Shown: one piece after another, positions 1 through 51,675 of the stretch
How positions within the stretch are numbered: the first letter of the stretch is position 1
Layout of the letters: the number at the start of each line of letters is the position of its first letter
Source: Okeania hirsuta
GTDB taxonomy: Bacteria > Cyanobacteriota > Cyanobacteriia > Cyanobacteriales > Microcoleaceae
Direction: 5' to 3'
NCBI RefSeq assembly: GCF_003838195.1
Contig: NZ_RCBY01000026.1
Coordinates: 1 to 53,507 of the forward strand
Length of the DNA: 53,507 nt
Notes under the pieces: model-generated
Seen by the model: the letters and a program-made list of their open reading frames with translations, nothing else
Told to the model about the DNA's origin: nothing
Databases searched by the model: none
Translations under genes and position numbers: made by a program

Positions 1-56
1 AGAAGGCAGAAGGCAGAAGGCAGAAGGCAGAAGGCAGAAGGCAGAAGGCAGAAGGG
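1..56. repeat. Tandem heptanucleotide repeat (AGAAGGC)x7 plus one degenerate unit (STRR-type)
   Basis: Direct reading: agaaggc repeated head to tail from base 1. Confidence 0.9.
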
Positions 57-5600: not shown

Positions 5601-5750
5601 AAAATGACGGTTATTTAAGTTTTTATGGATAGATATAGAATCAGAAATACTGGGCGATCGCTCTGTTAAAATTATAGCGTTAGCGGAGCTTTGCGTCAGC
5701 AATCGCTCTATTTGCAATGCGCCATATATAGTGTCTTTCCCTAAGTCCTG
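5601..5750 (+). mobile_element. Partial MITE-related repeat (copy A). Its right ~100 bp matches the MITE family ending ATATATAGTGTCTTTGCGTAAGTCCTG
   Basis: Near-identical to copy B. Shares the TAGCGTTAGCGGAGCTTTGCGTCAGCAATCGC core and the right TIR with the full MITEs at 22989 and 25174. Lacks the left TIR. Confidence 0.7.
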
Positions 5751-5942
5751 ACTATTTATCAACTCAAACATCAATTATTATCCAAATATCTAGTATCAGA
5801 GCTCAAATATCCTAGGCGTTGGTGATGCGTGGTTATGATTGTGCTTGAATGGCAATTGTCTAACTATTAACTGAAAAACATTTTATATTTGGCTAAATTT
5901 AGGTTTCATAGCTTGATTCACCAACGCCATATCCTACAATTA

Positions 5943-6090
5943 AAATGACGGTTATTTAAGTTTTTATGGATAGATATAGAATCAAAAATAGTAGGTGATC
6001 GCTGACAAAAATCATAGCGTTAGCGGAGCTTTGCGTCAGCAATCGCTCTATTTACCATGCGCTATATATAGTGTCTTTGCGTAAGTCCTG
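5943..6090 (+). mobile_element. Partial MITE-related repeat (copy B)
   Basis: About 90% identical to copy A, about 340 bp downstream in the same orientation. Confidence 0.7.
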
Positions 6091-6168
6091 ATGTATTTAA
6101 TTTAATTGCTGAATTTAATTGCTGTAAATATGTCGGCGACAGTCGAAACAGACCGTAGAGCATGTCAA

Positions 6169-9340: not shown

Positions 9341-9963
9341 GAAAAGCGGGCGGGTATTGCGCTTTCCTTGGATTTTTTTTAAGAAGTTTGTTCTATGGCC
9401 ATTTGATATAATTAATTTGGCCTACAGAAATTCTAAATTATAAATTTGATATTTCTGAGATTTTAGATCTGGTCAAAAAACCAAATTATCTTTTATCTTT
9501 TGAATCTATTTGTAAGAATTTGTGGACAATAAAAGAAGTTTTACTATTTTTTGAGAATTTAGATTAGATTTTGACTAAGATTCAAGTGCTTTAGTACAGA
9601 ATCCAGATTGGATTGGCCTAAAGTACAGCTTTTTCGTTTCTTATCTATTCAGATAATTATGATGGCCTTTACACTACTCAATACTATGTTAAGAATGTTA
9701 ACATTTATTACGTCTTATGGCTATACCTATAAGGATGATTTTTCAGATGAATGAGTTTAATTACCTAAATTAGTTAAATTATCTATAAGAGGGTACTCAT
9801 AAATTCTTAAAAAAATTGCATCCTGCACAACAAAATCACAAAAATTTTGCAAAAATACTTAAACAAGGTCAAAAAAAGAGTATATGAAGTATATTTACTT
9901 GACTTTTGACTTTCAATTTTAAACTTTTGACTATCTTGAGTATGTCTTTAATTCTGTTTGCAT

Positions 9964-9984
9964 AACATTTCGCAGCGAAATGTT
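9964..9984. promoter_or_regulatory. Perfect palindrome AACATTTCG-CAG-CGAAATGTT about 60 bp upstream of the Anbu-like gene
   Basis: Seen directly. A weaker CCGC-GAA-GCGG palindrome follows at 10014-10024. Confidence 0.25.
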
Positions 9985-10041
9985 TGCTCAGAATTACTTA
10001 GTCATTTTTGGCTTCCGCGAAGCGGTTGAGTTACTTAATAT

Positions 10042-10701
10042 ATGACTTATTGCCTTGGTATTATTACTGAATCTGGTATTTAAATGGCCTCTGACTCTCG
10101 TACTAATGCGGGAGTAGACTATATTTCCACTTACCTGAAGCTATTTGATTTTTCTCTGACTGGAGAGCGGGTTATCCTCATCAGCACTTCTGGAAATTTG
10201 TCAATTACTCAAGGAGTAATCACTGAACTAAAAAAAGACTTCAAGATTTCTGAGGATACTAATCTTCATACTATTCCTACCCTTTACGAAATTGCTCGCT
10301 ATATTGGGAGTAAAATTCGACAGATTCAAGAAAAAGACCGCTCTTGGCTACAAAAGGATCGAATTGACACTGGATGCAGTATATTACTAGGGGGTCAAAT
10401 TAAAGGACAAGATCCTGAATTATTTTTGATTTATTCTCAAGGGAATTGTATTTCTGCTACAAAAGAAACACCTTTTCTACAAATAGGTGAGACTAAGTAT
10501 GGCAAACCAATTTTAGACCGTGCTTTAAGTTTTTATACTTCTTTAGAAGCTGCTGCTAAATGTGCTTTAGTTTCTCTAGATTCTACAATGAAATCTAATC
10601 TTTCTGTGGGACCTCCGATTAATTTGGTGATGTATGAAAAGGATAGTTTTCAAATTCGGCATCGCCTGCAAATGCGTCTGGGCGATCCTTCATTTAGCTA
10701 A
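10042..10701 (+). pseudogene. Anbu / proteasome-type (COG3484) Ntn-hydrolase homolog with an in-frame TAA at 10081-10083
   Basis: ATG at 10042 encodes MTYCLGIITESGI, then TAA, then MASDSRTNAGVDYISTY... in the same frame. The ORF-track start at 10084 would lack the N-terminal Thr1 of this family. Confidence 0.6.
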
Positions 10702-10807
10702 AGTGCGAAAGTTATGGGAGGAGTCTATCAAACAAGTTCTTGATGAAATTCCAGATTTAAACTGATTACATGATTCTCAAGAATCTCAGGAAGATATTTT
10801 GATTGAT

Positions 10808-10875
10808 TGAACAACACAAGGGAGTGGAGGAGTGGGGGAGTACGGGAGTCAGGGAGTGGGGGAGTGGGGGAGAAA
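10808..10875. repeat. STRR heptamer array (GGGAGTG / GGGAGTA units)
   Basis: Direct reading. Confidence 0.8.
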
Positions 10876-11462
10876 TAAACATCAGAATTACCACTTACAC
10901 AGTACAACGTATTTCCGGAATGCTCCGCAAACGAGAACATCTCAAAAAAAATCTGCTGAAAGCTGTTTGCGCAGCATTCCGCAGGAAAAGCTGAACGCTG
11001 AGGTGCTTCTTTAATAATTTAAATGCTACCTAAGTTAAGCATTAATTCATGGTAATTGGTATAAATTAATCGAATTAAGCGATCGCGCAAGTAGAACAGA
11101 ATTCTATCCCTCTAATATAGTTTCACCCCCATCGCGGAGTGTCTTTTTGGACGATAAATCTTGATCGTTGGTAAAAAAATTTAGATGCGTTGTAATACTA
11201 CAAGAACTTGGTTAGGACATTTTTCAATCCTAAAATCCTTTTACAGTTTGTGATTCCCTATTCCCTGATCCCTACTCCCTAGCGCGTAGGGCTATAATTT
11301 TTCAGTTTTCCCCATTTGTGGTTGTCAATAGTATAGTTAGAAAGAATTGGTTAGGACATAGACTAATGACGAATCTTAGACTAGAAAATTTTTTTCCAAC
11401 TGTCCCCTGTTCCCTGTTCCCTGCTATACAATGTAACGGTTGTTTTAATTTTATTATAGAGT

Positions 11463-12758
11463 GTGATTGAACGTTACACCTTGCCCGAAATGGGTGAACT
11501 TTGGACTGAGAATGCCAAGCTAAAAACTTGGTTACAAGTAGAAATAGCTGTCTGTGAAGCTCAGGCAGAACTTGGGTACATACCTGCTGAGGCAGTAGAA
11601 GAAATCAAGGCCAAGGCTAATTTTGACCCAAAGCGGGTTCTCGAAATTGAGGCAGAAGTCCGCCATGATGTGATTGCTTTCTTGACAAATGTGAATGAGT
11701 ATGTTGGTGATGTTGGGCGGTATATTCACTTAGGGTTGACAAGTTCTGACGTTTTGGATACTGCATTAGCATTACAGATGGTTGCGAGTCTGGATCTGTT
11801 GTTGTCATGTGTTGAAGAGTTGGGACAAGCAATTCGCTATCAGGCACAACAGCATCGGGAAACTGTGATGGTAGGTCGTTCCCATGGTATTCATGCGGAA
11901 CCTATAACTTTTGGTTTTAAGTTGGCAGGATGGTTGGCAGAAGTTTGTCGCAACCGCCAGAGATTGGTAAAAATGCGTGATAATATTGCTGTGGGTAAGA
12001 TTTCTGGAGCAGTGGGAACCTATGCAAATATTGACCCACGAGTTGAGGCGATCGCCTGCCAAAAACTGGGACTTCAACCGGATACTGCATCTACTCAAGT
12101 AATTTCACGCGATCGCCATGCTGAGTATGTGCAAACTTTAGCGTTGCTGACTGCTTCTATAGAACGTTTTGCTGTAGAAGTTCGTAACCTTCAACGTACC
12201 GATGTTTTAGAGGTTGAGGAATATTTTTCTAAGCGTCAAAAAGGCTCGAGCGCCATGCCCCACAAACGCAACCCCATTCGTTCGGAAAGGTTAACGGGAA
12301 TGGCGAGAATTGTGCGGGGTCATGCCGTTGCCGCTTTGGAAAATGTTGCTCTCTGGCACGAACGAGATATTTCCCATAGTTCTGTTGAAAGAGTGATTTT
12401 GCCGGATGCTTGCATTTTAACTCATTTTATGCTCAAAGAAACTACTAATTTAGTCAAAAATTTGTTAGTTTACCCAGAAAACATGAAGCGAAATATGAAT
12501 GTTTATGGAGGGGTAATTTTTAGTCAGCGAGTGCTTTTGGCATTAGTAGAAAAAGGCATGATTCGAGAGGATGCTTATCAAATTGTTCAGTCTTGCGCCC
12601 ATCAAGCTTGGAATCAACCAAATGGTAATTTTCAGGATTTAATTTGCAAAAATGAAGAAATTAAAAGTAAGTTATCTGAGGCAGAAATTGCAGCTTGTTT
12701 TGACCCGAAACATCATTTAAAACATTTGGATGATGTGTATCAAAGATTAGGTATTTGA
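11463..12758 (+). CDS. purB: adenylosuccinate lyase
   Basis: 431 aa. GTG start. Fumarate-lyase family signature around SSAMPHKRNP. The N-terminus is typical of PurB. Confidence 0.9.
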   Translation: MIERYTLPEMGELWTENAKLKTWLQVEIAVCEAQAELGYIPAEAVEEIKAKANFDPKRVLEIEAEVRHDVIAFLTNVNEYVGDVGRYIHLGLTSSDVLDTALALQMVASLDLLLSCVEELGQAIRYQAQQHRETVMVGRSHGIHAEPITFGFKLAGWLAEVCRNRQRLVKMRDNIAVGKISGAVGTYANIDPRVEAIACQKLGLQPDTASTQVISRDRHAEYVQTLALLTASIERFAVEVRNLQRTDVLEVEEYFSKRQKGSSAMPHKRNPIRSERLTGMARIVRGHAVAALENVALWHERDISHSSVERVILPDACILTHFMLKETTNLVKNLLVYPENMKRNMNVYGGVIFSQRVLLALVEKGMIREDAYQIVQSCAHQAWNQPNGNFQDLICKNEEIKSKLSEAEIAACFDPKHHLKHLDDVYQRLGI

Positions 12759-14729: not shown

Positions 14730-15581
14730 ATGCAAACACTTGGCAATTACGAGCAAAAACTAATATTACTACCTCATCTAGCAACATTAGGTATTGGTAT
14801 CGAAGCAGGGGTACAAACAATCGACACCTATCCCTACTATGTCATCGGTATGCTGCATCTCATCAGTTCTGCTGTTTTGGGAGCAGGAGGTATCTACCAT
14901 GCAGTTTTAGGGCCGAAACAGCTTGATGAGAAAGGTTTTGGCTACGACTGGGAAGATGGCAACAAGATGACTACTATTTTGGGTATTCATCTAGTGCTGT
15001 TGGGGGTGGGAGCATCTCTATTGGTCATTAAAGCAACGGTTTTAGGTGGTATTTACGATCCACTAATAGAACAAGTAAGGTTAATACAGCCTAATCTCGA
15101 TCCCGTAAGAATTTTCGGTTATCTGTTTGGCTTTAGTCCTAATGGTTGGACAATTACTGGCATGGCTAGCGTAGATAATCTCGAAGATGTGGTCGGTGGT
15201 CATGTCTGGGTGAGCCTACTCTGCACTGTTGGTGGTCTATTTCACATTATTTCCAAACCTACGGGTTGGGCAAAACAAATACTAATTTGGTCCGGAGAGG
15301 CTTACTTGTCTTACAGTTTAGGGGCACTTGCGATCGCAGGATTTAGCGTAGCTGTCTTTATCTCCACCAACGAAACTGTTTATCCTAGCGTGTTTTATAG
15401 TCCTATTGGCAGCGACTCTGTGCGAACTGCTCTTGCTACCGTTCATGCTGGATTAGGTTTCCTAGCTTTGCTCGGACATTTATGGCACGCTTACCGAGCG
15501 CGAGCTGCTACTCGTAAAGTATTTTATGGAACGTTCTTTGACTTTATGGCTAAGAATGTTACACCTATTACACCTGCTTGA
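14730..15581 (+). CDS. CP43'/IsiA-like chlorophyll-binding protein lacking transmembrane helix I
   Basis: 283 aa. Begins [10 protein letters not shown] then goes directly into [13 protein letters not shown] (helix II region). No helix-I sequence in any frame upstream. Confidence 0.6.
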
Positions 15582-15630: not shown

Positions 15631-16659
15631 ATGACTGTCGTAACTGATGAGAATCTGCAAATCCCTTGGCGGGCAGGTAATGCTCGGCTTGTTAACCTAT
15701 CTGGTAAGCTATTGGGCGCTCATGTAGCCCATGCTGGCTTAATTGTACTCTGGGCTGGAGCTATTACTTTGTTTGAAGTTGCCAACTTTGATTCCTCCCT
15801 ACCAATGTACGAACAGGGCTTAATTGTACTGCCTAATCTAGCCCGCTTGGGATTTGGAGTTGGTGAAGGAGGTGTCATTGATACCTACCCCTACTTTGTG
15901 ATTGGGGTACTGCATTTGATTAGTTCGGCGTTTTTAGGAGCAGGTGGTATATTCCACGCTCTCAGAGGTCCAGCCAAACTAGAAGACAAATTTTCCTTCT
16001 TTGGCTATAGCTGGGATAATCCAGGTAAAATGACAACTATTCTAGGTATACATTTAGTCTTATTAGGAATCGGAGCATTTTTACTTGTAGCAAAAGCGAT
16101 TGCATTTGGAGGGTTATACGATCCAGTAGTTCAAAATGTACGAGTAATATCAAGTCCCACTCTAAATCCTACTACCATTTTCGGCTACTTCTTCGGTACA
16201 GAAGGACGTTTCTGGCTGGCTGGTGTTAACTCTTTAGAAGATGTAGTAGGCGGTCACATTTGGATTGGTGCTATCTGCATTTTGGGTGGTATCTGGCATA
16301 TTCGCACCGTACCCTTTGACTGGGCTAAAGGCTTATTTGTCTGGTCAGGAGAAGCATATTTGTCTTACAGTATTGGCGCAGTCAGCTTAATGGCATTTGT
16401 CGCAACATTGTTTGTGTCCGTTAACTCCCTGGTATTTCCCACAGAATTTTTCGGACCAACTTTGACTCTGGTGTTCGATCGCTTTCCTGTGTTTGTTAGT
16501 ACTGATGGAGCCTTGACTGCAAGAGTATGGTTGGCAAATGCTCACTTCTGGTTAGGATTTTTCTTCCTGCAAGGACATATATTCCACGCCCTCCGGGCAG
16601 CAGGTTATAGCTTCACCGAAGGCAGAGTAGTCACATTTACAAGAGGTCAAGTAAGCTAG
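15631..16659 (+). CDS. isiA: iron-stress chlorophyll-binding protein IsiA (CP43')
   Basis: 342 aa. Full six-helix CP43' pattern ([32 protein letters not shown]...). Confidence 0.85.
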
Positions 16660-16661
16660 TT

Positions 16662-19436
16662 ATGACTGTAACTAAATCAAATCCATTAAAGTTTTTAGGC
16701 TTTTCCACAGATAATAATGTTGATGTTGCGAACTATGTTAGTGATTCCCAAGAACCTTATTCTTGGTGGGCAGGTAATTTTCGCTTTGTTAACTTGTCTG
16801 GAAAATTATTGGGAGCGCACATTGCTCATGCAGGGTTGATCGTACTCTGGGCTGGAGCAATGACTCTGTTTGAGCTATCAAAATTCGATCCTAGTCTAGC
16901 CATGTACGACCAAGGACTGATTTTGCTGCCCCACATGGCGACTCTGGGTATAGGGGTTGGCGCAAATGGTGAAATTATTGATACTTATCCCTACTTTGCT
17001 ATTGGTGTTATCCATCTCGTTAGTTCAGCAATTCTAGGCGCTGGTGGCATTTTCCATGCCGTGCTTGGACCTGACAAACTTGATGAAAAGGGATTTGGCT
17101 ATCAGTGGAATGATGGCAAGAAAATGACTACTATCCTTGGTATTCATCTACTGCTACTGGGGATGGGAGCATTTTTGCTAGTAGCCAAAGCTATGTATTT
17201 TGATGGTTTGTATGACCCGGCGATCGCCAATGTGCGACTGATTACTGAACCCACTCTCAACCCACAGACTATCTTCGGTTACCTCGTCGGTATCACCCCT
17301 GATGGCTGGACGTTGAAGGGTATGGCTGCTGTCAACTCTTTAGAAGATGTAATAGGCGGTCACATTTGGATTGGTAGTATCTGTATTCTGGGTGGTCTCT
17401 GGCATATTAATACTGCTCCTACAAAATGGGCTAAGGGTCTTTTTGTCTGGTCGGGAGAGGCATATCTTGCCTATAGTCAGGCAGCTCTGGCTTATATGGG
17501 TTTTTTCGCAGCCTACTTTGTCTGGGTGAATGATACAGTCTATCCTTCAGTATTTTATGGTCCTGTAGGTGTGACTAATGTTGATGGTACAATCACTCCT
17601 CGCACCTGGCTGATGTTGTTCCAACTCATCTTTGCCTGTCTGCTACTGGCAGGTCACTTTTGGCATGGTCTCAGAGCTAGAGCGATCGCCAGTGGATTTG
17701 TCTTCAGTAATATGAAGTTCAATCCCGGTGCCCTCTATGGAGACACTCAGTTTAATAACGAATCTCTAGTGACTGGTATTGTACAGCCTTTCCAGAACAA
17801 TCCTCAATTGGGTAATTTGGCAACCCCAATTAATTCCAGTCAGCTTACCATCACTTGGGTTAAGAACTTGCCAATTTACCGCAATGGTTTATCTCCTATT
17901 GCACGGGGTCTAGAAATTGGCATGGCTCATGGCTACCTATTATTAGGGCCTTTTCTCAAGCTCGGACCATTGCGTAACACCGACCAAGCTCTTCTGGCTG
18001 GAGGTGGTAGTGCATCTGGCTTAGTAGTGATTTTAAGTATCTGTCTGTTTGTTTATGGGGCTGGAGCAATGACTCTGTTTGAGCTATCAAAATTCGATCC
18101 TAGTCTAGCCATGTACGACCAAGGACTGATTTTGCTGCCCCACATGGCGACTCTGGGTATAGGGGTTGGCGCAAATGGTGAAATTATTGATACTTATCCC
18201 TACTTTGCTATTGGTGTTATCCATCTCGTTAGTTCAGCAATTCTAGGCGCTGGTGGCATTTTCCATGCCGTGCTTGGACCTGACAAACTTGATGAAAAGG
18301 GATTTGGCTATCAGTGGAATGATGGCAAGAAAATGACTACTATCCTTGGTATTCATCTACTGCTACTGGGGATGGGAGCATTTTTGCTAGTAGCCAAAGC
18401 TATGTATTTTGATGGTTTGTATGACCCGGCGATCGCCAATGTGCGACTGATTACTGAACCCACTCTCAACCCACAGACTATCTTCGGTTACCTCGTCGGT
18501 ATCACCCCTGATGGCTGGACGTTGAAGGGTATGGCTGCTGTCAACTCTTTAGAAGATGTAATAGGCGGTCACATTTGGATTGGTAGTATCTGTATTCTGG
18601 GTGGTCTCTGGCATATTAATACTGCTCCTACAAAATGGGCTAAGGGTCTTTTTGTCTGGTCGGGAGAGGCATATCTTGCCTATAGTCAGGCAGCTCTGGC
18701 TTATATGGGTTTTTTCGCAGCCTACTTTGTCTGGGTGAATGATACAGTCTATCCTTCAGTATTTTATGGTCCTGTAGGTGTGACTAATGTTGATGGTACA
18801 ATCACTCCTCGCACCTGGCTGATGTTGTTCCAACTCATCTTTGCCTGTCTGCTACTGGCAGGTCACTTTTGGCATGGTCTCAGAGCTAGAGCGATCGCCA
18901 GTGGATTTGTCTTCAGTAATATGAAGTTCAATCCCGGTGCCCTCTATGGAGACACTCAGTTTAATAACGAATCTCTAGTGACTGGTATTGTACAGCCTTT
19001 CCAGAACAATCCTCAATTGGGTAATTTGGCAACCCCAATTAATTCCAGTCAGCTTACCATCACTTGGGTTAAGAACTTGCCAATTTACCGCAATGGTTTA
19101 TCTCCTATTGCACGGGGTCTAGAAATTGGCATGGCTCATGGCTACCTATTATTAGGGCCTTTTCTCAAGCTCGGACCATTGCGTAACACCGACCAAGCTC
19201 TTCTGGCTGGAGGTGGTAGTGCATCTGGCTTAGTAGTGATTTTAAGTATCTGTCTGTTTGTTTATGGGGCGGTAGTGTTTCAAGGTTCTAGAGAACCAAG
19301 AGGCGTTTTACCGGAGAACCTACAAACTTATCAGGAATGGAGTTTGTTTACCTCTGGTTTTCTCATTGGAGGACTAGGCGGTGTAGTTTTTGCCTGCTTT
19401 ATCCTTATAGAAATCGGGCGAGCGGGAATTTTGTAA
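16662..19436 (+). CDS. IsiA-PsaL fusion protein with an internal in-frame tandem duplication of 403 aa
   Basis: CP43'-like domain followed by a PsaL-like domain (NLATPINSS...[36 protein letters not shown]). Residues from GAMTLFEL to FVYGA occur twice, identical. Confidence 0.75.
16852..19269 (+). repeat. Perfect direct tandem duplication, 2 x 1209 bp, inside the isiA-psaL ORF
   Basis: 16852-18060 is identical to 18061-19269 in my read. Sequence diverges after GTTTATGGGG. Confidence 0.85.
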
Positions 19437-19646
19437 CTTTGTTTGCTTGAGCAGGGGAAGAAGGGCAGAAGTTAATATTCCTAATTTTTATCAGGAAAGG
19501 CAGAAGGCAGGAGGCAGTAGGCAGAAGGGAATTCTGACTCGCCTGTTACCTTTAGGGGAACAAGGGTATAAAAACCCCATCCAATTGTTCCTTCTGCCCT
19601 CTGCTCTCAGCATAGCTGCCTTAGTTCATCGGATATTTACTATGTT

Positions 19647-19772
19647 TCCTGCTCTATAAAACTGACACAAAGCTTCACATAACGTGACAAATTGATGTTT
19701 ACTTCCTGCTTCTTGTGAGGCCGTCGGCGGTTACTCATCCACAGGCATTGACGGTCAAGCCAACCGCATCTG
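19647..19772 (+). repeat. Dispersed ~125-bp repeat (copy 1 of 2): CCTGCTCTATAAAACTGA...GGCCGTCGGCGGTTACTCATCCACAGGCATTGACGG...
   Basis: About 85% identical to 48010-48134 in the same orientation. Confidence 0.7.
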
Positions 19773-20346
19773 TTGAGTCTATACCTACATTTAAGTCTTT
19801 GTCAATCAACATCAGAAAAAATCCTCAAACCCTGACTGCGCCCTTCCTAGTAGGGAGCGGGATTTCTTCTGAGGTCTATGTCTATATAGATAGACCAAAG
19901 AAATGTTTAAGTCGCGATTAGTGCAGAAGATACAAAGCGTCACCATCGTTACTACTTGCCTGTGAGAACTAGCGTATTATTTCGCGCTCCGTATCGCAAA
20001 TTGTTAACTAAGTCGAAACTCTCCTGCTTCAGTTAACAGCTCAAAAATGTTTTGACAACTCTATTACCTAGAAGTTGTTTGTAAATAATTATAAAGTGTT
20101 TTTACTCCTCACCAATTTATAACTCTCTGATAATTAATCTCAAACCCTTGTACTACCTGGGCAAAAACTTCACTTCTGGAGATGTATATTGAGTATTTCA
20201 GAGTACAAAGTTTGGAATAAATAACTAAATTAAAGGTGTTCCTTTACCTTACAAAAATTTACAAACAGTCTCTTTGGAATTTTTAGGTAATTCACTCTAT
20301 GATATAGTCGAATCTTATAATTTTTAGTTTTTACAGGATTTTATCA

Positions 20347-21060
20347 ATGACAATTCCTTTAATGTACTACCCACTCTCTAGTCAAAACCATCGGGTTCAA
20401 AAATTTGATGTTCCAGGAGATGAATATCCTAAACAATACACTTTAGAGAACCTGCCTACTGCTACAGAGATGGATGAGATTATCTGGGCAGCCTATCGGC
20501 AAATTTTCAATGAGCAGCAAATGATCGCAGCACATCGACAGGTTGCTCTGGAGTCCCAACTGCGCAATGGTCAGATTACAATGAAAGATTTCATTCAAGG
20601 TTTGTTGCTTTCTGAGTCATTCCGGCGACTGATCTATGATAGCAACAGTAACTATCGTTGTGTTGAGCTTTGTATTCAAAGGGTTTTAGGACGTCCTGTC
20701 TATAACAATCAAGAGAAACTTGCCTGGTCTATTGTATTGGCAACAAAAGGACTTCAGGGTTTTGTCAATGACCTGTTAAACAGCGAAGAATATGACAAGT
20801 ATTTTGGCTATAACTTTGTTCCCTATCAACGTTGCCGAATTTTACCCCAACGCACTCAGGGAGAGTTACCTTTTGCTCGAATGGCTCGTTACGACAGCTA
20901 TTACCTAGAGCAGTTATATCAAACAGGGCAACTACGGAAATTTTATCCAGGTATGTTAGATAGTAGCGCTCGTGCTTATCGCAAAGCTCTATCATTTGTG
21001 GGAATACTCTCTGTAGCAGTGTTATTAGTTACTCTGATTCTAGTACTTTCGCCCAAATAA
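20347..21060 (+). CDS. cpcG: phycobilisome rod-core linker CpcG family with a hydrophobic C-terminal tail (CpcL-like)
   Basis: PBS-linker domain pattern. C-terminal LSFVGILSVAVLLVTLILVLS membrane anchor, as in the CpcL/CpcG2 type. Confidence 0.7.
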   Translation: MTIPLMYYPLSSQNHRVQKFDVPGDEYPKQYTLENLPTATEMDEIIWAAYRQIFNEQQMIAAHRQVALESQLRNGQITMKDFIQGLLLSESFRRLIYDSNSNYRCVELCIQRVLGRPVYNNQEKLAWSIVLATKGLQGFVNDLLNSEEYDKYFGYNFVPYQRCRILPQRTQGELPFARMARYDSYYLEQLYQTGQLRKFYPGMLDSSARAYRKALSFVGILSVAVLLVTLILVLSPK

Positions 21061-22962: not shown

Positions 22963-22988
22963 CTTGACTATGTTATTTTAAACTTGAA

Positions 22989-23152
22989 CAGGACTTACGC
23001 AAAGACACTATATATAGCGTTTACCAATTTAGGCGATTGCTGACGCAAAGCTCCGCTAACGCTTAAAAAATCAAGTGCGATCGCCTCAAGATTTTGGGCA
23101 TTTTTCAAACAAGAGTAAAAACACTTAATATAGTGTCCTTGCGTAAGTCCTG
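22989..23152. mobile_element. MITE, 164 bp, with 25-bp terminal inverted repeats CAGGACTTACGCAAAGACACTATAT
   Basis: Both TIRs read directly. Same family as 25174-25448 and the partial copies at 5601 and 5943. Confidence 0.8.
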
Positions 23153-25173: not shown

Positions 25174-25448
25174 CAGGACTTACGCAAGGACACTATATAT
25201 GGTGCTTAGCGTTCAGACTATCTCTATATTGGCACTGCTTACTAGGTTCCTCTGAGCGATCGCCTGAACTCCAAAACATAACTAATAGATATCTCCGAAA
25301 AAGAATCTGAAATCCCTGTGTATAGGTAAAAATATAATTTCTAGAGATGTTTAATGGAATATTCACTAACATAGGCGATCGCACTTGATTTTTTAAGCGA
25401 CCGCCTAAATTGGTAAACTCTATATATAGTGTCTTTGCGTAAGTCCTG
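25174..25448. mobile_element. MITE, 275 bp, same TIR family (CAGGACTTACGCAAGGACACTATATAT ... ATATATAGTGTCTTTGCGTAAGTCCTG)
   Basis: Both TIRs read directly. ORF-track entries 25193-25600 and 25341-25541 lie inside it and are probably spurious. Confidence 0.8.
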
Positions 25449-25703
25449 TTGAATATAATCTTGACAGGATTTATCGCAGAAGGAACACAGAGTAATATAA
25501 TTCCCTTGATCATCATACAATGCGTAGGGGCGAATGGCCATTTGTGCTCCGCAAAGCTCCGAATGGCGCCCCTACAATATAGACTCTTAATCTTAAACAA
25601 TGCTGAATAACACTGATGCGACCAGATTTGAGATCAAACCCTTGTAGGAATGTTCCATGGAACGCCCCTACATTCTTTTTCGGAAGGAAAGCAAGTTGAA
25701 AAC

Positions 25704-27191
25704 CTACGAAGCACTTCCAATTACAATATCGCGCACCCGCACAGGTACACAACTATGAGTCATTTGAGCTATCTGCATCGGTTCCCCTTTCCCACAAATA
25801 TTAGTACCACACTGCTCCCTTTCTGCAACAGTTCCCACCGCATCAACACTATTCCAAAAATCTGTTGTCATCGAATGATAAGTCACATCTTTCAACATTC
25901 CCACAACTTTGCCTTTTTTCACCTGCCAAAAAGCATCTCCACCAAATTGAAAATTCCGTCGCTGTTGGTCAATAGAAAAACTACCAACACCATCAATTAA
26001 AATCCCATCTTCAGTATCAGCAATCATTTCATCTAAACTAGCAGTATGACTACCACCATCAGGACCCGCTTCTAACCCCAAATTCGGAATGCGTACCATC
26101 GGTACACTCGACCAACTGTCAGCAAAAGCACAACCATTACTACTACCACGTCCAAGTCGGTAAGCTGTTTCTCGGTCTGTGAGATAATCAACTAATATCC
26201 CATCCTTAACAACATACCATTCTTGTGACTTCACACCTTCATCATCATATCCCATGGTGCTACGACCCCCTGGTTGAGTGCGATCGCATTTAAAATTCAC
26301 CCAGGGAGCAGCATATTGAAGTTTACCCATTTTATCGGTAGTGGCAAAACTGGTACCAGCAAAATTAGATTCATAACCATAAACCCTATCTAATTCAGTG
26401 GGGTGTCCAACAGATTCGTGGATAGTTAAAAATAGATTCGTTGGCTTTAAAATTAGAGTGGAGCGAATATCCGCAGGTCCTTTGGGAGCATAAACTTTTT
26501 CAATTGCTTCCTCAGCAACTCGTTCTACCTGACTCAATAGATCAGTGGGGTTAATATGCTCATAACCAATATTCAAAGGAGGTCGTTCGTAACTGCGACT
26601 TTGAGCATCATTATTGGCAATAGCTGTGCAAGAAAACCCAGGATAGCTGCGGTAAATTGTTTGCTCAATTAGGGAACCATTTGTAGAAGCAAATATTTTC
26701 TCTTCTTTAGTAAACCGGAGAAAAGAAGCAGCTTTTTTCACTCCTCGCTCCTCATAACTCAATAATTTCTCATTCAAATTTAGAAGTAATTCTGCTTTTT
26801 CGCCAATGGGTACTGCAAAAGGATCAATTTCAATGGGAGTAACATAACTATCACGGTAGGTTTCCACAGGTACTAACTTTACAGGTGTTTGTTGACAGAG
26901 ACGACTACCCTTAGCAATATCTACTGCCAGAGCAACAACTCTAGCTACCTCTTCTAGACTTTGGCGATGACTGGCAGCAAAACCCCATGCACCATTGAGC
27001 AAAACTCTCACCCCAAAACCAGAATTGACCTTATCTTCTAATCTGTTGAGAGAGCGATCGCGAGCTGTTAAATTTTGAGAACGATAAATACATAAGCGAA
27101 TATCTCCATATTCACATCCGGACTGACGAATTAAGTCTATTGCGAAGGTAGCTAATTCTGTAGTTTTAATCTTTGCTGGTGCTTGTACCAT
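25704..27191 (-). CDS. tldD: TldD/PmbA-family metalloprotease (peptidase U62)
   Basis: 495 aa with N-terminal pattern and length typical of TldD. No PmbA partner in the window. Confidence 0.75.
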   Translation of the reverse strand: MVQAPAKIKTTELATFAIDLIRQSGCEYGDIRLCIYRSQNLTARDRSLNRLEDKVNSGFGVRVLLNGAWGFAASHRQSLEEVARVVALAVDIAKGSRLCQQTPVKLVPVETYRDSYVTPIEIDPFAVPIGEKAELLLNLNEKLLSYEERGVKKAASFLRFTKEEKIFASTNGSLIEQTIYRSYPGFSCTAIANNDAQSRSYERPPLNIGYEHINPTDLLSQVERVAEEAIEKVYAPKGPADIRSTLILKPTNLFLTIHESVGHPTELDRVYGYESNFAGTSFATTDKMGKLQYAAPWVNFKCDRTQPGGRSTMGYDDEGVKSQEWYVVKDGILVDYLTDRETAYRLGRGSSNGCAFADSWSSVPMVRIPNLGLEAGPDGGSHTASLDEMIADTEDGILIDGVGSFSIDQQRRNFQFGGDAFWQVKKGKVVGMLKDVTYHSMTTDFWNSVDAVGTVAEREQCGTNICGKGEPMQIAQMTHSCVPVRVRDIVIGSAS

Positions 27192-30204: not shown

Positions 30205-31242
30205 GTGTTGGTAGTGCCTAATTTATCATTTGGCAAAATTGCAAAGTTTTCGGTTTCTATCAGAATAGGAATTTTTATTTTAACATTATTTCTGGGTTGG
30301 ATACCACTAGCAGCACCAATATATTTTTTTGGGCGAGATGCAAATTTAGCGAGTATATTGGCGATCGCTCTATTATATATAGAGTTTATTATTTTAGTCC
30401 AGTTTTGGGGAAAGAAAGTTTATCAACAACCACACCTACTACGTCACTACGGTTTAGAAATAAGTAGGGTCAACTTTCAGAATTTTTTTCAAGGTTTAGG
30501 AATAGGTTTAGTTAGTCTGTTTGGTTTTTTTATTTTAGAAACGTTTCTGGGATGGGTAATATGGCAGTCACCTTCAGCAAAGTTACCTCAATTTATTCTG
30601 GAAGGTTTATTGGTATCTGTGGGTATTGGTTTTGCTGAGGAGTTACTATTTCGAGGGTGGTTATTGGATGAGTTGGAGCGAGACTACAAACCAAAAGTAG
30701 CTTTGTGGGTAAGTAGTATTGTGTATGCCTTACTACACTTTATTAAACCAGTTGAGGAAATTTTGCGGATTTGGTTTCAGTTTCCTGGTTTGGTGTTGTT
30801 AGGTTTAATCTTTGTTTGGGCAAAACGTGGATCAGTTGAAGAAGGAAGAAGGAAGAAGGAAGAAGGAAGAAGGCATCCCCCCTTGCCCCCCTTTGAAAGG
30901 AAGAAGGAAGAAGGCATCCCCCCTTGCCCCCCTTTGAAAGGAAGAAGGAAGAAGTGGATGGTGACTCAAAACCCAACTAATTATCAACACCGTGTAGATA
31001 GCGGGGTATTAAACCCAAAAGAAAAAGATAAATTGACTTATTATCAACAACAATTATTGGGTTTGCCTATTGGTATTCATGCTGGTTTTGTGTGGGGTTA
31101 TTACATTATTAATGTGGGTGGTTTAGTTAAGTATTCTAGTGTAGTTGGAGAGTGGGTAGTTGGGATAAATGGTAATCCTTTAGCGGGTGTAATGGGGTGG
31201 TTATTTTTAGGGGCGATCGCTTTATTTATTCAGCGAAAATGA
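30205..31242 (+). CDS. CPBP-family intramembrane metalloprotease (CAAX protease / Abi domain) with an in-frame STRR insertion
   Basis: EELLFRGWLL and ALLHF motifs. Nucleotides 30841-30957 are a GAAGGAA heptamer array with a duplicated 45-bp unit. It encodes EEGRRKKEEGRRHPPLPPFERKKEEGIPPCPPLKGRRKK without breaking the frame. Confidence 0.7.
   Translation: MLVVPNLSFGKIAKFSVSIRIGIFILTLFLGWIPLAAPIYFFGRDANLASILAIALLYIEFIILVQFWGKKVYQQPHLLRHYGLEISRVNFQNFFQGLGIGLVSLFGFFILETFLGWVIWQSPSAKLPQFILEGLLVSVGIGFAEELLFRGWLLDELERDYKPKVALWVSSIVYALLHFIKPVEEILRIWFQFPGLVLLGLIFVWAKRGSVEEGRRKKEEGRRHPPLPPFERKKEEGIPPCPPLKGRRKKWMVTQNPTNYQHRVDSGVLNPKEKDKLTYYQQQLLGLPIGIHAGFVWGYYIINVGGLVKYSSVVGEWVVGINGNPLAGVMGWLFLGAIALFIQRK
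30841..30957. repeat. STRR heptamer array (GAAGGAA) with a duplicated 45-bp unit, inside the CPBP CDS
   Basis: Direct reading. Confidence 0.85.
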
Positions 31243-36059: not shown

Positions 36060-36890
36060 CATATTTTCTATACCTATAACCTACAACCTGCCATCTACCA
36101 CTTAAGGAAGGATAAGGACAATAAATCATATATTCAGGAATTAGGGATTTTTGAGTTCTAAACGCTACATATCTGTAACGTTATAGTTTTTGTTTCCTAT
36201 ATATAGTGTCTTTACCTAAATATCGATCGCCTAACACCTACCACTAAAGCAAAGGTAGGGATAATAAATCATATATTTAAGAATTAGGGATTTTTAATTT
36301 CTAAACACTACATATCTATAACGTTATAGTTTTTGTTCTCTATATATAGTTTCTTTACCTAAATAGAGTAGGAACAATTAATCATAATATTCAGGAATTA
36401 GGGATTTTTGAGTTCTAAACACTACATATCTGTAACGTTATAGTTTTTGTTTCCTATATATAGTGTCTTTACCTAAATATCGATCGCCTAACACCTACCA
36501 CTAAAGCAAAGGTAGGGATAATAAATCATATATTTAAGAATTAGGGATTTTTAAGTTCTAAACGCTACATATCTGTAACGTTATAGTTTTTGCTCTCTAT
36601 ATATAGTGTACTTGCCTAAATTTTGATAATCTAACACCTACCACTAAAGCAAAGGTAGGGATAATAAATCATATATTTAAGAATTAGGGATTTTTAAGTT
36701 CTAAACGCTACATATCTGTAACGTTATAGTTTTTGCTCTCTATATATAGTGTACTTGCCTAAATTTTGATAATCTAACACCTACCACTAAAGCAAAGGTA
36801 GGGATAATAAATCATATATTTAAGAATTAAGGATTTTTGAGTTCTAAACACTACAGATATGTAACGTTATAGTTTTTGCTCACTATATAT
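36060..36890. repeat. Tandem array of about 6 units of 128-144 bp (two identical 143-bp units at 36488-36773), each with two hairpins
   Basis: Units start CTAACACCTACCACTAAAGCAAAGGTAGGG at 36231, 36487, 36631 and 36774. Each contains CCTACC...GGTAGG and TAACGTTA stems and a TATATATAGTGTCTTTACCTAAAT segment related to the MITE TIR. Confidence 0.85.
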
Positions 36891-36990
36891 AGTAGTTGAA
36901 GCAAAGGGTGCGGACATATCAAAAGCTTAAAACTCAGACAACGCAAGATTTTTCAGTCCTTAGCTCCTTCCTTCTTTCTTTTCTGAACAA
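36888..36990 (+). repeat. Dispersed repeat (copy 2 of the 35399 family)
   Basis: ...AAAGGGTGCGGACATATCAAAAGCTTAAAACTCAGACAACGCAAGATTTTTC + TCCTTC heptamers. Confidence 0.65.
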
Positions 36991-40342: not shown

Positions 40343-41979
40343 TTATGGGCCAGCTTGAGCGATCGCCCGAATTGTCTCAGCCCCCAAAGCCTCCACTTTT
40401 TGCTGAAACTCAGTAGCAGTAATTTCAGCCATTTGCCTTGCCTTCTCAATCTCTAAATTATTCAGTGTCTGCTGATGGGCTAACTCAGTCTCCTGACGCG
40501 CCCTCAACTGAGCCATCTCAGCCTCATGGCGAATCCGTGCTGCTTCTACTTCCTGCTGCGCCAAATTCACCGCCAACTGGCCTTGAAAAGGAGATAACAT
40601 ATAAGCTTGAGGTCCATTGACTAATTTTAGTTCCCCACTTTGAACATCCCGTACATATATACCTTCATTTTTGTCTAGGGGAATAGCCTGAAGTTTTTCT
40701 AATACTTCTAATTCCACTGGGGGAATATAATCTCTTGGCCCAGTAATCATCCATAAATCTCCTGGTTGCCGAGTAATAACGTTTGCTCCTGTTCCCTCGG
40801 TGAAAGTTTCCTCAACTCTGATTAGGAGTGCTTCTTGTTCACCAAGAATATAGACCTTTTTAATTCCTGTTTCTAAATCTTCTCCTGGGTGCAAAAAGAA
40901 AGATGTTCTGCCCTGACGCACTTCTTTCATACCCCACTGCGGTTTACCATCTGCATCTATGGGATTAGTTACTATGCACCATTCGCGATCGCTTAAAGTA
41001 GTGATTTTGACTTCTCCCACTACTTCTTCATAAACGTCGGGAATATGAATTTCAGCATCTGCAAAAGTAACTAACTATTCATATCCCGCTTTGCGTTGCT
41101 GACCAAAAATATCAGTAAAAGTCCGTTTTGCTTTTAGATGTAGTGCTTGACGTTCGGTTAATACATAGGCATCAATAGTATCGACAATTTCTTCATCTAC
41201 TCCAGGCAAATAAGCACCTTCTTCCCTGACCAACCATTATTCCCCAGTTCTACGTCTGTTACCTTGACGATCTATACAATTTTGTCGTGCCAGCAGTCGT
41301 AAGGCTTGGTTAGGTTTAATTATTTTAGCTATAACTGTGACTACCACTTCAACTTCTACCCTGGGAGTGTAAGTTCCTGGCCCCTCAAATAACCATTCAT
41401 CCCCTGTCGTACGAGTGACAGTTTGAGACTCTCCTGCAACGATAACTGTATCAGTAAAATCTCGTATTGCTTTGAGACGTAGAGTTTGGTTTGTGTCAAT
41501 TACTTGTAGTTGAGTTACATCTTCTTCGAGTATTTCTCCTGGATATAGTGGGAAAGGGTCTTGAGCAAAGCGAATTTCCAGATCGCCATATTTGAGTCTA
41601 ATTTAACCATACTCATCGGCCACAAGTTGATCTGAACTATAGCAATGTGCGCTGGCATATTTACACATTATTTTTTGTACACCTTTTCTAAAATGCACTT
41701 TGAACTGGGCCTTGTAAATACCTGAGCGCTCATTGCTATATTTCTTAGTACAGGGTTAGCTGCTACACAATAATGGCGAGGTGGAACTACAATTGTCAGT
41801 TGTGGTTGTCAGACTAACCTTTCTGCATCTCCAAGGGTAATGGTTTGAGGGCCTATTTCTAGTCTGATAACACCAGTGTTATTGTCAAGAACATGAATAT
41901 ACTGTTGTGGCTTCAGGAGAATTATACCATTGTTCTCTATTGTAATTGGATATTCTGTGGTACTTTTTATTTTACTCAT
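40343..41979 (-). pseudogene. Major vault protein (MVP) homolog, pseudogenized by four in-frame stops and a 103-bp inverted-repeat insertion
   Basis: Reconstructed frame: MSKIKSTTEYPITIENNGIILLKPQQYIHVLDNNTGVIRLEIGPQTITLGDAERLV*QPQLTIVVPPRHYCVAANPVLRN [insertion] [33 protein letters not shown]...[22 protein letters not shown]...TGE*WLVREEGAYLPGV...KAGYE*LVTFADAEIHIPDVYEEVVGEVKITT... This is MVP-repeat signature throughout. The C-terminus ends TIRAIAQAGP like the vault cap helix. Confidence 0.75.
41638..41740. mobile_element. 103-bp insertion with 16-bp imperfect TIRs (TATAGCAATGTGCGCT / AGCGCTCATTGCTATA) interrupting the MVP reading frame
   Basis: MVP homology is continuous across it once it is removed. 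Its length is not a multiple of 3. Confidence 0.55.
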
Positions 41980-48009: not shown

Positions 48010-48134
48010 CCTGCTCTATAAAACTGATACAAAGCGTCACATAAAGTGACAAATTGACGTTTACTTCTTGCTTCAACTGAGGCCGTCGGCGGTTACTCAT
48101 CCACAAGCATTTACGGTCGAGCCGACCGCATATC
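48010..48134 (+). repeat. Dispersed ~125-bp repeat (copy 2 of the 19647 family)
   Basis: See 19647-19772. Confidence 0.7.
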
Positions 48135-50682: not shown

Positions 50683-51675
50683 TTAATTAGCGGGTGTCAA
50701 AATAATTACTGTTCGCTGATTGACATCAGCAGCAGGATCGCTACCAGGGAGTGGTTGAGAAAATCCCATTCCTTTGCCAACAACCTGATATGGTAAATTC
50801 TGCTGTTTCAAATATTCGACTACTGCATTTGCTCGGTCTTGAGATATTTCTTGGTTTAACTGAGCACCACCGACCTGAGATGTATGACCTTCAACTCTAA
50901 TCGTAACTTTATTAGGATCGTATTCTTTAATTTCTGAGATGAGACTATTTATAGTTTGCTCTGCTTGGGGAGATAATTCAAATTCATCAAATCCAAATTT
51001 TACTTGACCTAAAGTTTTGGCTTTACTCAAATTCTTGCCTTGTGGTTGAGATGTTGTAGATGTGTTAGTAGAGGTAGCAGCAGAAGTTTCGATTTCTGGC
51101 GATGATGTAGCAGTTGGTTGTGCAGTTCCAGATCCAGAGGTAGTAGTAATATTAGTAGTAGGTGATACGGTCGCAGATGGAGAAGTAGATACTGAGCTAG
51201 TAGTTGTTTCAGTGTCTGTGGTTTCTGTAGTTGTAGTTATAGACTCTGCTTCAGTGGTTGTTGTATCAGTTGTAATAGGAGTGGGAGACTCTGCTGTAGT
51301 AGTTGTTTCGGTTTCTGTGGTTTCTGTAGTTGTAGTTATAGACTCTGCTTCAGTGGTTGTTGTATCAGTTGTGATGGGAGTGGGAGACTCTGCTGTAGTA
51401 GTTGTTTCGGTTTCTGTAGTTTCTGTAGTTGTAGTTATAGACTCTGCTTCAGTGGTTGTTGTATCAGTTGTTTCAGTTTCTATTCTTTGTACTTGAGTAA
51501 CTTCTGTTTTATCATCTACATCTTCAGTTTCAGTCAATTGAACATCAATAGTAGGTTTTTCAAAAGCTTTAGGACCTGCAAATGCCCAAGCACAAATCAT
51601 CATAAAGCCCATACATCCTGCTAAGATACTAGGACTTAAAGTTTGTTGGTGATGTATTTTTTTTTCAGCAGTCAT
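50683..51675 (-). CDS. OmpA-family protein with a Thr-rich tandem-repeat linker
   Basis: C-terminal OmpA-like domain (TIRVEGHTSQVGGAQLNQEISQDRANAV). N-terminal TM. Three 32-aa Thr/Glu repeats. Confidence 0.75.
   Translation of the reverse strand: MTAEKKIHHQQTLSPSILAGCMGFMMICAWAFAGPKAFEKPTIDVQLTETEDVDDKTEVTQVQRIETETTDTTTTEAESITTTTETTETETTTTAESPTPITTDTTTTEAESITTTTETTETETTTTAESPTPITTDTTTTEAESITTTTETTDTETTTSSVSTSPSATVSPTTNITTTSGSGTAQPTATSSPEIETSAATSTNTSTTSQPQGKNLSKAKTLGQVKFGFDEFELSPQAEQTINSLISEIKEYDPNKVTIRVEGHTSQVGGAQLNQEISQDRANAVVEYLKQQNLPYQVVGKGMGFSQPLPGSDPAADVNQRTVIILTPAN
51180..51480. repeat. 96-bp tandem repeat x3 inside the OmpA-family CDS
   Basis: Direct reading. It creates the spurious antisense ORF 51062-51496. 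Confidence 0.8.

Follow-up and report, generated by a model that had tools for sequence, protein, structure and literature searches.

The isiA cluster of Okeania hirsuta

The DNA analysed here (the window, 53,507 nucleotides) is the entire Okeania hirsuta contig NZ_RCBY01000026.1 of assembly GCF_003838195.1. It carries a cluster of four genes, isiA2–isiA3–isiA4–cpcG2, all on the + strand, the third of which encodes a fusion of an IsiA (CP43′) domain with PsaL and contains a long internal duplication (Table 1). The first two genes, like the third, are CP43′-like. The same gene order is present in Okeania sp. SIO1F9 (locus L001), in a second O. hirsuta assembly (GCA_003838225.1, locus L002) and in Trichodesmium erythraeum IMS101. 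A cluster of this composition has been described for Leptolyngbya sp. JSC-1 and for Trichodesmium (Tery_2483–2486); in the transcriptome of the latter, no cluster was repressed more strongly by iron (PMC12090762).

Table 1. Positions of the cluster genes, the repeat and associated features in the window.
Feature	Position	Strand	Description
isiA2 orthologue, first cluster gene	14730..15581	+	283 aa; about 83 codons lost in frame, lacks helix I
isiA3 orthologue, second cluster gene	15631..16659	+	342 aa; RQH49120.1
isiA4-type IsiA (CP43′)–PsaL fusion gene with internal duplication	16662..19436	+	924-aa ORF; RQH49121.1 / WP_124154413.1; Pfam PF00421 + PF02605
Copy 1 of the unit	16849..18057	+	aa 63–465; latter half of helix 1 up to and including helix 8, which is the second PsaL helix
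Copy 2 of the unit	18058..19266	+	aa 466–868; 100% identical to copy 1
Novel junction with GGGC microhomology	18058..18061	+	same tetranucleotide at 16849–16852 and 19267–19270
Single-copy 3′ end of the gene	19267..19436	+	loop, last PsaL helix (helix 9, aa 890–920) and stop codon
Recombinant tract	19008..20000	+	diverges by about 5% from all Okeania sampled; first 259 nt lie within the unit, so also at 17799–18057
cpcG2-like phycobilisome linker gene	20347..21060	+	237 aa; last gene of the isiA2–isiA3–isiA4–cpcG2 cluster

Comparison of the window with itself at a period of 1209 nt gave a single unbroken run of 1213 matches (16849–18061 against 18058–19270), comprising two 100% identical copies of 1209 nt, head to tail, which keep the reading frame of the isiA–psaL ORF (1209 = 3 × 403 codons). 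This agrees with an earlier note on this DNA, which had reported an exact in-frame tandem duplication of 1209 bp; no difference between the copies, such as would have spoken for an older event, was found anywhere along the unit. The left border, the junction and the right border have the four nucleotides GGGC in common, owing to which the borders of the unit can be moved between 16849 and 16853 in five equivalent placements; the coordinates first proposed (16852–19269) are one of these. The ORF is 924 aa in length rather than about 521 aa, removal of one copy leaving an ORF of 1566 nt and 521 aa, and the protein junction reads CLFVYGA followed by GAMTLFEL, again as the note had it. The unit is the sole long 100% repeat in the contig, other repeats being 70–97% alike or short tandem arrays, and an exact repeat of this length cannot have arisen by chance.

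Underneath the duplication the gene is, by its domain content, sequence and gene context, an orthologue of the known IsiA–PsaL fusions of the isiA4 type; the earlier note had already named it an isiA–psaL fusion. Pfam searches with the 924-aa ORF recovered the photosystem II family (PF00421, E = 2.6e-135) and PsaL (PF02605, E = 1.7e-96), the latter in two stretches. After one copy was collapsed, residues 30–512 of the 521-aa protein aligned with Anabaena IsiA2 (PDB 7y3f chain 1, also 9zjt; E = 1.4e-182) and PDB PsaL chains matched residues 371–515. Against CP43 (1s5l_C), residues 18–304 of the query corresponded to 19–307 of the chain and residues 307–347 to 416–456, such that about 108 residues, the large lumenal loop E of CP43, are absent. 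IsiA2 of Anabaena sp. PCC 7120, known from the PSI-monomer–IsiA supercomplex (7y3f, 9zjt), has the same composition of a CP43′-like domain without the large lumenal loop joined to PsaL. Gene order and orientation match those of isiA4 in T. erythraeum IMS101 (Tery_2485) and Leptolyngbya sp. JSC-1, and the Okeania isiA–psaL protein is 92% identical to its IMS101 orthologue (L008).

The IsiA–PsaL fusion is an antenna protein of iron starvation, the PsaL-like tail of which takes the place of PsaL in photosystem I; Anabaena IsiA2 has nine membrane-spanning helices, with its C-terminal domain occupying the PsaL site (PMC9938196). Induction by iron starvation, or binding of monomeric PSI at the PsaL site, is known only for Anabaena, Leptolyngbya JSC-1 and Trichodesmium (PMC9938196, PMC12090762). 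The family layout is a single module of ~510–540 aa with nine helices (6 + 3). The Okeania ORF as written departs from it: compared with Anabaena IsiA2, it is 924 aa long and repeats helices 1 (half) to 8, and the one-module layout is regained only when one copy of the repeat is removed (521 aa).

The first gene of the cluster is also altered. While isiA2, isiA3 and isiA4 of Trichodesmium encode 368, 343 and 522 aa, in O. hirsuta isiA2 encodes 283 aa without helix I and isiA4 is duplicated. The isiA2 orthologue keeps its native start codon and first six codons, after which about 83 codons, including those of helix I, have been lost; the two alignment pieces that define this deletion overlap by 4 nt (14744–14747). 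An identical 283-aa protein is present in four assemblies (RQH49119.1, RQH20989.1, NET78046.1 and NES88847.1), compared with 355–370 aa in other Okeania, Dapis and Trichodesmium. The product is either a five-helix CP43′-like protein or that of a decaying gene.

Sequence databases hold two versions of the duplicated gene. The 924-aa sequence is entered in GenBank, RefSeq and UniRef as an ordinary light-harvesting protein (RQH49121.1 / WP_124154413.1, ‘chlorophyll a/b binding light-harvesting protein’ of Okeania hirsuta, with RQH49119.1 and RQH49120.1 as its cluster neighbours). By exact look-up it is recorded from this contig only, and a look-up among gene positions gave no further instance. 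When the contig was later re-annotated in RefSeq, the ORF was instead given a product of 574 aa, ‘photosystem I reaction center subunit XI’ (WP_445974445.1), starting at Met-351, and the gene model is therefore not settled. Since both models differ from the conserved 521-aa gene, they may mislead surveys of domain architecture. The practical value of the present observation is mainly one of data hygiene: RQH49121.1 / WP_124154413.1 and WP_445974445.1 should be flagged as unreliable gene models.

Several other features of the contig may be recorded. It begins with 7.9 copies of AGAAGGC (window 1–55), and AGAAGGC-like runs also occur just 3′ of the isiA4 stop codon (~19460–19520). At 30856–30954 a 41-nt unit recurs without mismatch in 2.4 copies. 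A dispersed repeat of 122 nt with 90% identity occurs 3′ of isiA4, in the spacer that precedes the cpcG2-like gene (19648–19769), and again at 48010–48131, with short inverted relatives around 5672–6099, 22984–23066 and 25396–25453. An intergenic array of AT-rich units of ~143 nt (5–6 copies, 88–95% alike) is found between two minus-strand ORFs at 36092–36893, and a 99-nt (33-codon) tandem repeat of 2.8 copies, 97% alike, at 51198–51471 within an OmpA-family gene (ORF 50683–51675, − strand). Lastly, a 224-aa ORF at 40343–41020 (− strand) carries Major Vault Protein repeat domains (PF01505, PF17794 and PF17796); in a related contig (L082, 6072–7076) the vault ORF has as neighbours two very short ORFs of 36 and 52 aa with Vault domains. 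The 224-aa ORF looks like a fragmented vault-protein-like gene, which, to our knowledge, would be unexpected in a cyanobacterium.

Single-copy relatives and the age of the duplication

Comparison with orthologous isiA–psaL genes, which had been suggested as a check, gave a uniform picture. The same locus is present in one copy, encoding 521 aa, both in Okeania sp. SIO1F9 (L001, NET78048.1) and in the other O. hirsuta assembly (L002, RQH20991.1), which are fully syntenic with the window and 99.2–99.8% identical to it over ~21 kb; each aligns with the window as two pieces overlapping by exactly 1213 nt. Orthologous loci from Okeania, Dapis and Trichodesmium are likewise single copies aligned over 521 residues (this wider count comprises L003–L011 and L031, with the longer matches of a few distant loci left aside). 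The 120 best database homologues measured 508–541 aa, none having a doubled CP43′–PsaL or CP43′–CP43′ layout, and no doubled layout was seen among the best 150 of 1.84 billion protein representatives in a filter-free search, where the longest was 570 aa. The junction 27-mer (18047–18073) occurs once within the window and had no match beyond this contig in public collections of genome and metagenome contigs. Among the genomes searched, then, no other shows the duplication, which by sequence comparison appears private to one O. hirsuta draft genome.

An upper limit to its age is suggested by a divergent tract of ~0.9 kb that takes in the PsaL domain together with the spacer 3′ of the gene (Table 1), and is flanked by DNA 99.8% identical to that of SIO1F9. 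When the collapsed gene was compared with L001 there were 31 nt differences (6 aa), 29/31 of which fell within gene nt 1138–1563. The tract is an ordinary recombination mosaic; other clusters of differences lie at ~26000–27000 and, relative to L002, also at 9500–11500, 16000–16500 and 30500. Because both copies of the unit bear the same divergent allele, the duplication would be younger than the recombination exchange. Moreover, the copies show no divergence and near-identical strains lack the duplication, which together suggest that it occurred after the strains had separated, possibly in culture.

Two other sources can be set aside. A bubble in the assembly of mixed strains is rejected, since the two copies do not differ and share one divergent allele. 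Unequal crossing-over between isiA paralogues is rejected too: the paralogues are only ~70–80% alike, and the junction joins a PsaL helix to helix 1 of CP43′, which are non-homologous positions.

Formation of the junction

The reading that best accounts for these observations, to which we assign a probability of roughly 0.6, is that of a very recent, microhomology-mediated tandem duplication, private to the strain, which disables the gene but is revertible, and which is carried by at least a substantial share of the genome copies in the culture. Microhomology-mediated intragenic tandem duplication is a common and unstable class of bacterial mutation, characterised by copies that are exact and head to tail, borders that have a few bases in common, restriction to single strains and revertibility by homologous recombination. 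The O. hirsuta repeat shows identical head-to-tail copies, GGGC at the borders and close relatives with a single copy, and nothing sets it apart from this class, although here the mechanism is inferred. In a single event, replication would have slipped or switched template from one GGGC tetranucleotide to another 1209 bp away and so copied head to tail the piece that begins halfway along membrane helix 1 and finishes with helix 8, to give a disrupted allele. Such an event would have been very recent, after the strains parted and possibly in culture. The damaged isiA–psaL allele would be neutral while iron was plentiful, and RecA-type recombination between the 1209-bp copies could restore the 521-aa gene exactly. 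Hairpins at the breakpoints, considered as promoters of slippage, had folding energies that did not differ from those of shuffled sequences (z = −1.3 and −0.2).

The principal alternative is that the organism has one copy only and that the second is an artefact, whether an in-vitro chimera or the product of scaffolding, gap closing or polishing that wrote an overlap twice. We regard this as a possible but distinctly less probable account. It would also cover the case of a minority junction, or a small excised circle, written as a fixed two-copy allele in the assembler's single pass round a loop in the graph. With short reads, de Bruijn assemblers would resolve an exact tandem repeat of 1.2 kb from graph topology or coverage and not from spanning reads. 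The O. hirsuta genome paper of Moss et al. 2018 reportedly used Illumina reads and SPAdes assembly. An artefact would fit with the presence of the duplication in one draft contig and its absence from strains 99.2–99.8% identical, with the perfect identity of the copies, with a contig end in a simple heptamer repeat, typical of short-read contigs, and with the disagreement between the 574-aa and 924-aa calls. A sighting in a single assembly of two perfectly identical adjacent copies is, indeed, what false duplications in draft assemblies have in common with the present case.

The junction itself, however, differs from that of a false duplication, which would be expected at a gap, a run of Ns, a contig end or a pre-existing repeat. 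The contig is without any N, and the junction is interior, lying 18 kb from the nearest contig end. Nor is there a repeat at the borders of the single-copy sequence, which share only 4 nt, so the suggestion in the earlier note of an assembly artefact ‘at a repeat’ does not fit, even though the choice it posed between recent duplication and artefact named the right alternatives. Since the borders share no more than this, an assembler based on k-mers or overlaps would be unable to invent the junction and would need reads containing it, and the junction must therefore have existed in the molecules that were sequenced. Low-frequency chimeric reads, moreover, are usually dropped in the cleaning of the graph. 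Finally, only 2.1% of junctions placed at random in this sequence would have borders that share 4 nt or more (P = 0.021), and a blunt overlap join would show this just as rarely, which points to a polymerase switching templates, in the cell or in vitro, rather than to a blunt join made in silico. A chimera formed in vitro at microhomology, for instance during whole-genome amplification, would look identical to a cellular event supported, as here, by one draft contig. The in-frame state, which has a one-in-three chance, is uninformative and carries little weight on either side. The junction was probably present in the living cells as well.

Consequences for the antenna protein

Helices were mapped by hydropathy and with an AlphaFold model of the 924-aa ORF, the two agreeing wherever the model had alignment support. 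This alignment covered copy 1 and the C-terminus only, confidence being high for residues 50–345 and 400–465; copy 2 was modelled without alignment support (pLDDT 25–75), and the model is uninformative on membrane orientation. Helices 1–6 of the CP43′ domain were placed by both methods at 47–73, 109–135, 155–179, 227–250, 265–289 and 313–343, and PsaL helices 7 and 8 at 412–434 and 443–474. The unit thus covers aa 63–465, opening halfway along helix 1 and closing where helix 8 of nine finishes, rather than reaching through the last PsaL-like helix as was first thought: helix 9 (aa 890–920 of the 924-aa product, encoded at ~19329–19421) falls beyond the repeat and occurs a single time.

In the model one continuous helix (443–474) spans the junction at 465/466, past which helix 1 contributes just eight residues (GAMTLFEL). 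Downstream of this hybrid helix come helices 2′–8′ (512–538 to 846–867) and then the single helix 9 (890–920), making 16 predicted long helices in all. Helix 2′ is consequently the ninth instead of the second, and helix 9 the sixteenth instead of the ninth, an odd shift of seven. Provided that the hybrid helix makes a single crossing of the membrane, all that lies past the junction, helices 2′–8′ and helix 9 alike, would be predicted to insert inverted. In addition, copy 1 is without helix 9 and copy 2 without the first half of helix 1. With neither module complete and helix parity flipped, the double CP43′–PsaL module envisaged in the earlier note is very unlikely to work, and the helix-count topology suggests that the duplicated allele is damaged rather than a double antenna. 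The unit includes neither promoter nor gene start nor a whole gene, and therefore no gain in dosage would be expected from it.

A duplication that is real, fixed and expressed as a working tandem antenna, in which two chlorophyll-binding CP43′ domains are tethered to PSI by PsaL-like helices, is highly improbable: the borders lie inside helices and not at domain limits, the second module and helix 9 have inverted parity with neither module complete, and the copies are undiverged and without a second genome of doubled layout among those searched, so that there is no sign of selective retention. To the credit of such an antenna stand the intact ORF and in-frame duplication, the origin of the IsiA–PsaL family itself in a fusion of domains, and the isiA2 orthologue, which survives as an open frame in four assemblies without helix I and so indicates that CP43′ domains lacking this helix may be tolerated. 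Were it true, the gene would capture, in nature, a stage in the origin of multi-domain antenna proteins, the IsiA–PsaL fusion itself among them.

Nothing in these data supports selection or a new antenna architecture. Returning to the disabling duplication as the preferred reading, the isiA4 repeat, considered together with the loss of helix I from isiA2, hints that constraint on the iron-stress antenna cluster may be relaxed within the lineage of O. hirsuta. If real, the duplication would be a clean example, in a polyploid cyanobacterium, of a revertible, microhomology-mediated duplication within a gene.
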